Below are positions 19,671 through 20,011 of a stretch of DNA of 37,258 bases, one piece after another (the first letter of the stretch is position 1; the number at the start of each line of letters is the position of its first letter). A program made the translations under genes and the position numbers. Origin of the DNA: a virus; the IMG/VR virus record IMGVR_UViG_3300045988_170598, positions 1-37,258 of that record; one strand, given 5' to 3'. The notes below the pieces were generated by a model, which searched no databases, was not told the DNA's origin, and worked only from the letters and a program-made list of their open reading frames with translations.

Positions 19671-19757
19671 CTAAAAAAATATTTTTAAAAGTATTGTTAG
19701 AACAATTAAAATTATAGTTCCTATAATCCATAGTTTTAATTCTTTTTCTTGTTTCAT
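19671..19757 (-). CDS. 28-aa hydrophobic peptide MKQEKELKLWIIGTIILIVLTILLKIFF (type I toxin-like candidate), not in the ORF track
   Basis: ATG at 19757 is preceded by SD GAGGTG with a 6-nt spacer. Single TM helix. TAG at 19673-19671. Confidence 0.5.
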   Translation of the reverse strand: MKQEKELKLWIIGTIILIVLTILLKIFF

Positions 19758-19759
19758 AT

Positions 19760-19788
19760 TTAACACCTCACTTTTATTATGATATAAT
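19760..19788 (+). promoter_or_regulatory. near-consensus sigma-A promoter antisense to the peptide operon (TTAACA-17-TGaTATAAT)
   Basis: -35 at 19760-19765, TG at 19780-19781, -10 TATAAT at 19783-19788. It overlaps the SD of the 28-aa ORF on the other strand. Confidence 0.6.
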
Positions 19789-19794
19789 GTTAAA

Positions 19795-19840
19795 GAAGAA
19801 ATTTTTTAAGGACGGAGGCTTTCGCCTCCTTTGGTTATTT
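19795..19840 (+). ncRNA. predicted short antisense RNA (about 45 nt) ending at hairpin GGAGGC-TTTC-GCCTCC plus TTTGGTTATTT
   Basis: Inferred from the promoter at 19760-19788 and the hairpin at 19815-19830. The U-rich tail exists only on the + strand. Confidence 0.35.
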
Positions 19841-19957
19841 AAACAATATTTCTAATATTGTTTTGATTAGTTTAATTAGTGCTGTGAAGAATGCTAACCT
19901 TGCAATCACTAATTCAACTTTTAACTCCTTATTAGATTTCTTCTTTTTGTTACTCAT
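19835..19957 (-). CDS. 40-aa peptide MSNKKKKSNKELKVELVIARLAFFTALIKLIKTILEILFK (basic N-terminus, amphipathic/hydrophobic helix), not in the ORF track
   Basis: Very strong SD GGGAGGGGGTGAT, 4 nt before the ATG at 19957. A consensus promoter lies upstream. Confidence 0.6.
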   Translation of the reverse strand: MSNKKKKSNKELKVELVIARLAFFTALIKLIKTILEILFK

Positions 19958-19982
19958 TTTATCACCCCCTCCCTACAATTAT

Positions 19983-20011
19983 ATTATATAACATTGGTGT
20001 CCAATAGTCAA
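19983..20011 (-). promoter_or_regulatory. near-consensus sigma-A promoter TTGACT-17-TATAAT for the small-peptide operon
   Basis: -35 at 20011-20006 and -10 at 19988-19983, minus strand. Confidence 0.7.

Follow-up and report, generated by a model that had tools for sequence, protein, structure and literature searches.

The 37,258-nt stretch of viral DNA analysed here (IMG/VR record IMGVR_UViG_3300045988_170598, positions 1 to 37,258, hereafter the window) is that of a Clostridium perfringens phage-plasmid, and at 20011-19671 it carries a minus-strand cassette of two small open reading frames (ORFs), ORF40 and ORF28, with a backward-facing promoter and a one-directional terminator-like hairpin between them. 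We tentatively read this cassette as a type I toxin-antitoxin (TA)-like membrane-peptide module held under several layers of repression, and rank this reading first because its brakes are those expected of a product harmful in excess and because its location on a temperate phage and its convergent, 3'-overlapping geometry match proven clostridial and Bacillus modules (PMC6563280). A preliminary description of the same DNA had proposed a type I TA-like layout, and the small membrane peptides and the putative convergent antisense gene on which that proposal stood are indeed present and conserved under selection. Two control layers come in addition: a predicted fold-back onto the ORF40 start and, in prophage copies of the cassette, an Aca13-type autorepressor with a palindromic operator.

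The mechanism that we infer, covering transcripts, RNA pairing and decay, toxicity and biological role, would run as follows. From a near-consensus sigma-A promoter, a short-leader, highly structured bicistronic mRNA would be made for ORF40 and ORF28, and its intercistronic stretch would fold onto the ORF40 start codon and first codons, such that the full-length mRNA would be poorly translated. The extended -10 promoter between the ORFs would fire backwards to give a small RNA (sRNA) ending at the one-directional hairpin terminator. This sRNA would be a perfect complement of the hairpin, the stop codon of ORF40 and 19 intercistronic nt, and its pairing would trigger mRNA cleavage or decay, as seen for the B. 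subtilis pairs RatA/txpA and SR4/bsrG, and would uncouple ORF28. At the operon end of prophage copies lies the gene of an Aca13-family autorepressor, which would bind a perfect palindrome over the -10; in the phage-plasmid an AbrB-type gene occupies that slot. The role would be prophage or phage-plasmid stabilisation, abortive infection or exclusion, by membrane damage once control is lost. Taken under mechanism and ALTERNATIVES, the three independent brakes proposed (prophage operator, locked start, antisense RNA) lead us to expect a product that is harmful when over-made. The elements of the window copy are the following, with SD denoting a Shine-Dalgarno sequence, aa amino acids and TM transmembrane.

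20011-19983, minus strand: cassette promoter TTGACT-17-TATAAT, among the 7 best promoter matches in the window
19973-19961, minus strand: SD of ORF40, GGGAGGGGGTGAT, its purine core kept in all variants
19957-19835, minus strand: ORF40, 40 aa, MSNKKKKSNKELKVELVIARLAFFTALIKLIKTILEILFK, candidate toxin or 'peptide 1'
19814-19829: hairpin GGAGGC-TTTC-GCCTCC directly after the ORF40 stop, -11.7 kcal/mol
19795-19840, plus strand: predicted antisense sRNA of ~46 nt with a 19-nt single-stranded 5' tail, terminator hairpin and U-rich tail, both ends being predicted
19760-19788, plus strand: antisense promoter TTAACA-17-TATAAT with extended -10 TATGaTATAAT (TRTGn), TG at -15/-14, overlapping the ORF28 SD
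19769-19764, minus strand: SD of ORF28, GAGGTG, 6 nt before ORF28
19757-19671, minus strand: ORF28, 28 aa, MKQEKELKLWIIGTIILIVLTILLKIFF, 'peptide 2'

Promoters, peptides and the predicted antisense gene

The two promoters, the two SD sequences and the two ORFs are where the preliminary description had put them. Sites matching TTGACA-16/18-TATAAT at no fewer than 11 of 12 positions number 7 on both strands of the 37,258 bp (2.8 +/- 1.7 in shuffles), and three of these seven best sites carry the TG extension, compared with 0.13 expected. All seven lie in the plasmid/lysogeny control region at 19.7-24.4 kb, two of them being the convergent pair of the cassette, and neither cassette promoter can be put down to background because both the sites of at least 11/12 and the TG-extended ones exceed shuffle expectation. 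Transcription from the sense promoter is predicted to start at about 19976, which gives a leader of ~19 nt. The ORF28 SD survives sequence change, variants swapping GAGGTG for GGTGGTG; a sense promoter of its own for ORF28 was considered and rejected, with no match of at least 9/12 on the minus strand between 19830 and 19760. Past ORF28 and ahead of the following gene, the minus strand has a 16-bp hairpin (19595-19634, inverted repeat I3), possibly a partial terminator of the cassette mRNA, which the terminator scan did not call on account of its 10-nt loop. As a side observation on leaders, those of the 39-aa form of the first ORF in L020, L029 and L030 (L numbers denote the related loci compared throughout) hold a three-codon mini-ORF, ATG-AAA-TGA, overlapping the true start codon (GGAGGTAATGAAATGAAA).

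ORF40 has a net charge of +7 and the Lys-rich N-terminus noted at the outset, while the hydrophobic helix then ascribed to it is better described as an amphipathic C-terminal helix of moderate hydrophobicity and not a clean TM segment. ORF28 does encode a single strong TM helix, with a charged N-terminus (MKQEKELK) followed by a 20-residue TM segment of Kyte-Doolittle 2.6-2.8. Small (<60 aa) hydrophobic or membrane peptides with their own ribosome-binding site (RBS), one of the features of type I TA, are what the cassette encodes. Neither ORF shows a frameshift or stop in any of the 18 unique close variants or in the diverged copies, both being intact throughout. By codon position 1/2/3, the variable sites among the 18 number 6/2/8 in ORF40 and 9/1/8 in ORF28, and the replacements are conservative (I/L/V/A and K/E/Q; in ORF28 I/L/V/A). 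Diverged equivalents of ORF28 occur in L035, L037 and L042. Plus-strand coding was rejected, the ORFs at 19787-19855 and 19863-19991 being without SD and the codon-position pattern suiting the minus frame, as were precursors of RRNPP or Rgg-type pheromones, no receptor gene being adjacent. A tblastn search of both peptides against a phage collection gave no match, a word-index homology search with ORF40 returned its own 90% cluster only, and none of 600 pattern matches in a protein-pattern scan of IMG/VR was confirmed.

The hairpin was described earlier with its correct sequence and with a tail on the plus strand only, and its coordinates are here amended from 19815-19830 to 19814-19829. The terminator scan finds it terminator-like on the plus (antisense) strand alone, with the tail TTTGGTTATT, and its 16 nt show zero variation in the 18 close variants. 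In diverged copies the closing pair goes from C-G to U-A, a compensatory change accompanied by 3 extra pairs (L037), or the stem is kept and the loop changed (L038); both retain the T-rich tail on the antisense side as well as TGATATAAT. At the antisense promoter, which overlaps the ORF28 SD as first noticed, the TG and the TATAAT are invariant in the close variants, nearby changes falling only at the N (19782) and at 19789, and the extended -10 is kept on the antisense strand in L035, L037, L038, L042, L039 and L043. An antisense TGn together with a -10 matching at 5/6 or better turns up in 1-6% of the shuffles made of each intercistronic region and is present in five diverged cassette lineages, across which the extended -10 motif never appears on the sense strand. 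In every diverged comparison the non-coding stretch of 50 nt that reaches from the hairpin to the antisense -10 is better conserved than the ORF40 coding sequence (98 vs 78%, 88 vs 81% and 80 vs 75%). The broader proposition that the whole intergenic region is more conserved than both ORFs was rejected for the close variants (pi 0.029 in ORF40 and 0.092 in ORF28, with 0.049 for the intergenic region), among which only its hairpin and -10 sub-blocks are invariant.

Opposite the predicted 46-nt RNA lie the stop codon of ORF40, the hairpin and 19 nt of spacer, and computed energies are -80.9 kcal/mol for the full antisense duplex and -24.8 kcal/mol for the tail alone. Comparison of the copies points to ORF40 (peptide 1) as the probable antisense target. 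A read-through form of the antisense RNA could extend to ~20070 and span all of ORF40. An Rfam scan of the cassette region in the window gave sub-threshold noise only. Separately, at the contig end of L037 (4065-4094), Rfam detects CRISPR-DR3 at 50.6 bits (threshold 41), some 2 kb from the diverged cassette, a CRISPR repeat that recalls the adjacency of type I TA modules and CRISPR arrays reported in C. difficile.

Predicted fold-back of the mRNA

The whole mRNA is predicted to fold into an unusually structured form (z = -5.2), in which three elements, all on the minus strand, stand out.

19965-19926: 5' arm of the predicted long-range fold-back, comprising the SD end, the start codon and codons 4-11 (among them the AAG-AAG Lys codons)
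19812-19779: intercistronic element UCCUUA-AAAA-AUUUCUUCUUU-AA-CAUUAUAUCAU, the 3' fold-back arm and also the target of the single-stranded tail of the antisense RNA
19919-19903 with 19884-19869: internal helix in the ORF40 coding RNA, with compensatory double changes in L035, L037 and L038

Between the two arms 27 bp are predicted, their pair probabilities lying at 0.7-1.0. Dinucleotide shuffling attains the duplex energy of -22 kcal/mol in 0/2000 cases and synonymous recoding in 0.4%, and the rare AAG Lys codons of ORF40 are confined to the paired stretch. The underlying 21-nt inverted repeat (I2) is 86% complementary; when a 20-mer is searched with at most 3 mismatches its partner is the only other match in the window, and two or more matches are found in 1/100 shuffles. 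The core helices are predicted in all 18 close variants, and co-variation is seen in several lineages: in L029-31 a C-to-U in the 5' arm is coupled to a register shift in the 3' arm, in L037 and L038 the UAAGGA/UCCUUA helix is shifted through an A-to-G in the 5' arm and an A-to-C in the 3' arm, and in L042 AAGAAGAAAAAAC is paired with GUUUUUUCUUCUU. In modelling, then, the fold-back is supported, and its exact pairing register is uncertain because changes in the outer helix, which holds the start codon, are uncompensated in several variants and because RNAalifold, run on a hand-curated alignment, prefers another register in which the SD purine tract, rather than the Lys-codon arm, pairs with the same pyrimidine tract.

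ORF40 codons 4-11 recur as a 17/20 copy in the single-stranded 5' tail of the predicted antisense RNA. This tail mimics the ORF40 start region, and both would therefore compete for the one intercistronic element. Constrained folding puts the mean unpaired probability of the ORF40 start region at 0.41 for the mRNA alone and at 0.68 with the antisense target blocked, the corresponding values for the ORF28 start region being 0.51 and 0.27.

Carriers, regulator genes and relatives

Over 77% of its first 25 kb the window shares 94% identity with phiSM101, an episomal phage, and the 7.5 kb around the cassette (17000-24500) are 98% identical to plasmid pCPC645_4, in which the cassette itself (19600-20080) is 100% identical. 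The preliminary description had noted that both peptides, being under 60 aa, are missing from its gene track; in pCPC645_4, ORF28 is likewise unannotated and ORF40 is annotated as hypothetical protein WP_263453017.1. A blastn search of the cassette against phages and plasmids returned pCPC645_4, identical, and nothing else. The search for similar peptides in phage-plasmids suggested at the start was run and found the exact 40-aa product in ~81 assembly blocks, each with the phage-plasmid context ParM-ParR-ORF40-AbrB60. The 39-aa form is found in 161 blocks, mostly integrated prophages, where it directly follows the endolysin (of three families, Amidase_2, Amidase_3 and GH25) and is followed by a 62-aa gene and then by host DNA. 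The tie to partition genes and a phage-plasmid lifestyle is thus incidental, and post-segregational killing is not the general context because most copies sit behind the endolysin of integrated prophages. In alignment, homology between the window and prophage copies runs from the cassette -35 to the ORF28 stop codon and the flanks are unrelated; judged from these alignments the cassette is a mobile unit, a 'moron' of C. perfringens temperate phages.

A 22-mer spanning the hairpin occurs in C. perfringens only among 185,579 species representatives, and in one IMG/VR contig. A degenerate-codon scan of JGI metagenomes gave four matches, all due to chance. A full hidden Markov model search of 1.8 billion representatives retrieved three distant ORF40 relatives (P0007-P0009), all after prophage endolysins and in the same layout. 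The downstream gene led to more distant cassettes in L042 (Clostridium), L039 (Listeria innocua) and L043; although these encode unrelated peptides, each has a GC hairpin after peptide 1 and an antisense TGnTATAAT-like motif before peptide 2. From these comparisons the cassette appears to belong to a wider Firmicute prophage family located behind lysis genes and so far undescribed. A separate case is plasmid p2 of strain JXJA17 (NZ_MK275620.1, L034), where a different small hydrophobic peptide with a strong SD (MKKFGLMLGNLIRFIWYYLVMAVIFLPLFLIAEWRY, 2648-2818) sits in the same slot after the ParR-like gene, an unrelated 62-aa gene being directly next; the post-ParR slot seems to collect membrane micro-peptides.

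Prophage cassettes end in a 59-68-aa gene (phrog_2277), of which 49 residues align to residues 90-138 of AcrIIA32 (E 2e-12), that is, to the Aca13 domain of the reference, PDB 8YE6 chain B. In anti-CRISPR operons Aca13 acts as autorepressor by binding inverted repeats placed between the -35 and -10 of the promoter (PMC12282945). The Aca13-family gene is present in all prophage copies, and no Aca13-linked cassette is without a perfect palindrome of 18-28 bp over the spacer and -10, the central bases of which co-vary with the protein segment N-terminal to a conserved Trp, as listed here.

Palindrome centre GTACATGTAC, segment SEAQKRAD: L013/L029 (C. perfringens) and L042
Palindrome centre CTATCGATAG, segment NSQTEAN: L035
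Palindrome centre CTACATGTAG, segment YDQSKYN: L037
Palindrome centre ATACATGTAT, segment SDAQLKAN: L039 (Listeria)
Palindrome centre ATACATGTAT, segment YNQQKYN: L043
TATTATAGTACATGTACTATAATA: candidate target DNA of the 62-aa Aca13-like protein

One prophage contig, L036, carries tandem cassettes (2321-2820 and 4131-4640) with a 281-aa gene between them; the two palindromes differ (CTATCGATAG and GTACATGTAC), and the Aca13-like genes differ to match (59 aa and 62 aa). The window has no Aca13 homologue by tblastn. Its slot is filled by an AbrB/MazE/SpoVT-type DNA-binding protein of 60 aa (19570-19388, minus strand; PF04014 at 24.5 bits, cut-off 24.7; phrog_2329), which always accompanies the window-type promoter and is a plausible candidate, by inference, for the regulator of that promoter. 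The window promoter spacer holds no long palindrome but an interrupted 5+3+5 repeat, ATTGG-aca-CCAAT (ATTGGacaCCAAT, 20005-19993).

The Listeria innocua locus L039 (GCA_021249605.1) links the cassette to transcripts already on record. In order, it has a palindromic promoter, an unannotated 33-aa ORF (VKDVLEEIKTVLEIITLAVALVTLHKKDKNKDK), a GC hairpin, an antisense extended -10, a 45-aa TM ORF and an Aca13-like gene of 70% identity. Rfam rli48 (RF01479) matches it at 2195-2346 with 165 bits (threshold 100), antisense to peptide 1 and extending from the antisense promoter/-10 region to the peptide-1 start codon, the ends of the model being imprecise in that they derive from tiling arrays. The pair rli48/rli98 is mutually antisense and lies in the A118 prophage, the antisense transcript having been detected experimentally and the sense transcript, rli98, being catalogued as a non-coding sRNA (PMC4179725, PMC3105390). 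This gives indirect but experimental support, by analogy, that cassettes of the L039 architecture produce an antisense RNA, and the published 'non-coding' rli98 may be a peptide mRNA. The L039 cassette shares the architecture of the C. perfringens one, unlike which its peptides show no detectable homology to ORF40 or ORF28; the rli48 match spans the whole peptide-1 ORF, whereas in the window the terminator follows after 46 nt. No rli48 match was found in the window at 18500-22000, even at E up to 10, and a literature search found no role for rli48/rli98.

In the par locus (fst RNA I/RNA II) of the Enterococcus faecalis plasmid pAD1, a plasmid-borne small peptide is paired with a convergent small RNA that terminates at the hairpin at the end of the toxin ORF, and repeats link the toxin start region to the 5' end of the antisense RNA. 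The cassette resembles par in its small peptide, in a convergent RNA that would use the ORF-end hairpin as terminator and in having start-region/antisense repeats. In par, however, the repeats are direct and RNA II is complementary to the fst start region, whereas the cassette repeat is inverted, its antisense tail having the same sense as the ORF40 start region and not being complementary to it. As in hok/sok (fbi-tac), long-range 5'-3' pairing is predicted to lock the toxin start region in the full-length mRNA; unlike hok/sok, the cassette has no overlapping leader ORF (mok) and no homology, its 3' arm is intercistronic and not at the mRNA 3' end, and the antisense RNA would target this 3' arm and not the leader.

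In C. difficile and B. subtilis, too, type I TA modules are prophage-borne and convergent, without sequence homology across families (PMC6563280). With CD0956.2-RCd10 and CD0977.1-RCd11 of C. difficile and txpA/RatA and bsrG/SR4 of B. subtilis the cassette shares its setting on a temperate-phage element, a membrane peptide of <60 aa, a convergent cis-antisense RNA over the 3' part of the peptide mRNA (predicted here), a structured toxin mRNA (stable in those systems) and the want of between-family sequence similarity (PMC6563280). It differs from them in that its mRNA has two peptide ORFs with the antisense gene between, and in the N-terminal basic tail of ORF40, the ~46-nt predicted antisense RNA and the attached protein repressor gene. 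Prophage copies also resemble the acr-aca13 operon of Streptococcus (AcrIIA32/Aca13), with a strong promoter, an inverted repeat between -35 and -10, small cargo and an Aca13-family gene last; the cargo here, in contrast, is two membrane peptides and an internal antisense gene and not soluble Acr proteins, and the window copy has the AbrB-type gene in place of aca13 and lacks the long palindrome.

Weighing the readings, and neighbouring features

Several observations weigh against a type I TA-like module. The predicted short antisense RNA overlaps neither RBS, the ORF28 SD lying 25 nt outside the duplex, so that the occlusion of the ORF28 RBS implied by the preliminary description does not follow. 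With E up to 1, searches of Pfam, NCBIfam, PHROGs and PADLOC brought up no relevant match of either peptide to known toxin families (Fst, Hok, Ldr, TisB, Ibs and others being counted as the type I toxin families modelled in Pfam/NCBIfam), and the usual polarity of Gram-positive type I toxins is opposite to that given to ORF40 by its N-terminal basic tail (PMC6563280). The second peptide and the protein repressor lie outside canonical type I TA, the Aca13 link together with the post-endolysin position matches anti-CRISPR loci (PMC12282945), and the 5+5 bp repeat of the window promoter, a putative operator, could be a product of chance. As to the fold-back, its energy is met by 3.8% of natural 42-mers in the window, and the outer helix goes uncompensated in several variants. 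Finally, the constrained folding suggests, at low confidence, that the antisense RNA could open the ORF40 start region instead of closing it.

The foremost alternative, possible though clearly less probable, is that of acr-aca-like regulated cargo, with the peptides being non-toxin early effectors (anti-defence, superinfection-exclusion or injection-blocking peptides), the antisense RNA an extra brake or a source of transcriptional interference, and the very strong promoter in need of shut-down by a small autorepressor, Aca13-type in prophages and AbrB-type here. The alignment of the phrog_2277 gene to the Aca13 domain of AcrIIA32, the 18-28 bp palindrome exactly at the Aca13 operator position and the co-variation of its centre with the protein segment all argue for this. 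So does the prophage end behind the endolysin, a typical accessory or anti-defence slot on the basis of Listeria acr loci, as well as the different small hydrophobic peptide in the same slot of the related phage-plasmid L034. Known anti-CRISPRs, on the other hand, are soluble proteins and not membrane peptides of 28-40 aa, the window has neither the Aca13 gene nor the long palindrome, and this account leaves unexplained why the antisense promoter and the one-directional terminator are the best-conserved part of the cassette.

We consider it unlikely that the antisense RNA works not as a classical antitoxin but by mimicking the peptide-1 start, competing with a fold-back helix and so switching translation between the two peptides (ORF40 opened, ORF28 closed), with the peptides serving anti-defence or exclusion and not addiction. 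The cassette would then represent a widespread, undescribed class among Firmicute temperate phages, consisting of a promoter under palindrome control, a peptide with a basic tail, a GC hairpin, an extended -10 on the antisense strand, a TM peptide and a small autorepressor.

It is rather improbable that there is no functional antisense RNA at all, the plus-strand promoter-like sequence being kept for the fold-back arm or the ORF28 leader and the hairpin serving the sense strand, in processing, stability or attenuation, within an ordinary operon of two small proteins. ATTATATCAT is indeed also the 3' arm of the outer fold-back helix, in the ORF28 leader, and AT-rich DNA gives many low-stringency promoter sites (19 at a threshold of at least 9/12, 21.8 expected). 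Yet this 3' arm is invariant while its 5' partner in the outer helix varies uncompensated, the terminator tail is on the antisense side only in C. perfringens, the extended -10 is retained across diverged lineages on the antisense strand only, and the Listeria counterpart is transcribed as rli48.

Quite improbable, too, is a set of lysis-associated peptides that would modulate holin or endolysin action, lysis timing or release, with the antisense RNA silencing them in the lysogen. Prophage cassettes always stand directly after the endolysin, whatever its type, both peptides are predicted small membrane-active helices, and a precedent exists in hokW-sokW of the Sp5 prophage, which, as outlined in PMC8621323, aids phage release. 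A terminator nonetheless stands between the lysin and the cassette, which brings a promoter of its own, and in the window the cassette is convergent to the endolysin, behind the partition operon. True holin genes precede lysins, and complete ones already do so in these phages, whereas the cassette is downstream of, or convergent to, the endolysin; no holin profile matched either peptide in the Pfam, NCBIfam and PHROG searches. That the ORFs are untranslated and the locus a pure sense/antisense sRNA pair, as the cataloguing of rli98 as non-coding might suggest, is very improbable in the face of strong, correctly spaced SDs on both ORFs, reading frames free of frameshifts and stops in the 18 close variants and the diverged copies, nearly invariant second codon positions and conservative amino-acid changes.

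Returning to the type I TA-like reading, our literature search found no description of the cassette in C. perfringens, nor a validated type I TA there; a 2019 review lists C. perfringens type I TA only as in-silico candidates, none experimentally validated (PMC6563280). If confirmed, the cassette would be the first validated type I TA module of this species, and a compact one usable for counter-selection or stabilisation, as has been done in C. difficile. An antisense-controlled small membrane peptide module is known in kind; the combination of two peptides, internal antisense, fold-back and autorepressor appears new. In Clostridium, Listeria and other Firmicutes, prophages carry the same architecture behind their lysis genes; the cassette would link orphan prophage sRNAs (rli48/rli98), Aca13-type anti-CRISPR-associated repressors and unannotated membrane micro-peptides, all so far treated separately, and it offers a hypothesis for the role of rli48/rli98 and for the targets of Aca13-like genes outside streptococci.

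The genes around the cassette in the window are listed below; on the minus strand the cassette is followed by the AbrB/MazE/SpoVT-type gene and then by a 161-aa gene.

21289-20381, minus strand: ParM-like gene, first in the minus-strand gene order around the cassette
20378-20073, minus strand: ParR-like gene, after the ParM-like gene
20035-20067, minus strand: bidirectional intrinsic terminator ending the ParM/ParR-like operon, with a 14-bp stem and T tails on both strands
17770-18798: GH25 endolysin, convergent to the ParM-ParR-cassette block

The terminator at 20035-20067 would insulate the cassette, and would also stop a long read-through antisense transcript on the plus strand. The 161-aa gene (18839-19324, minus strand) is convergent with the endolysin and belongs to phrog_2727, of unknown function, with weak helix-turn-helix/KilAC-like hints; it is kept beside the lysin in related phage-plasmids (L034, 1111-1545, minus strand) whether the peptide cassette is present or not. 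Further upstream, the region 21350-21770 holds four near-consensus promoters (21765-21737 and 21379-21351 on the minus strand, 21440-21468 and 21572-21601 on the plus strand) and a minus-strand terminator (21516-21490), and a weak CopA-like Rfam match lies at 21631-21707 on the minus strand (24.9 bits, threshold 60). All of these are upstream of the RepA_N replication gene (21781-22671), and they may constitute an antisense-RNA copy-number control.

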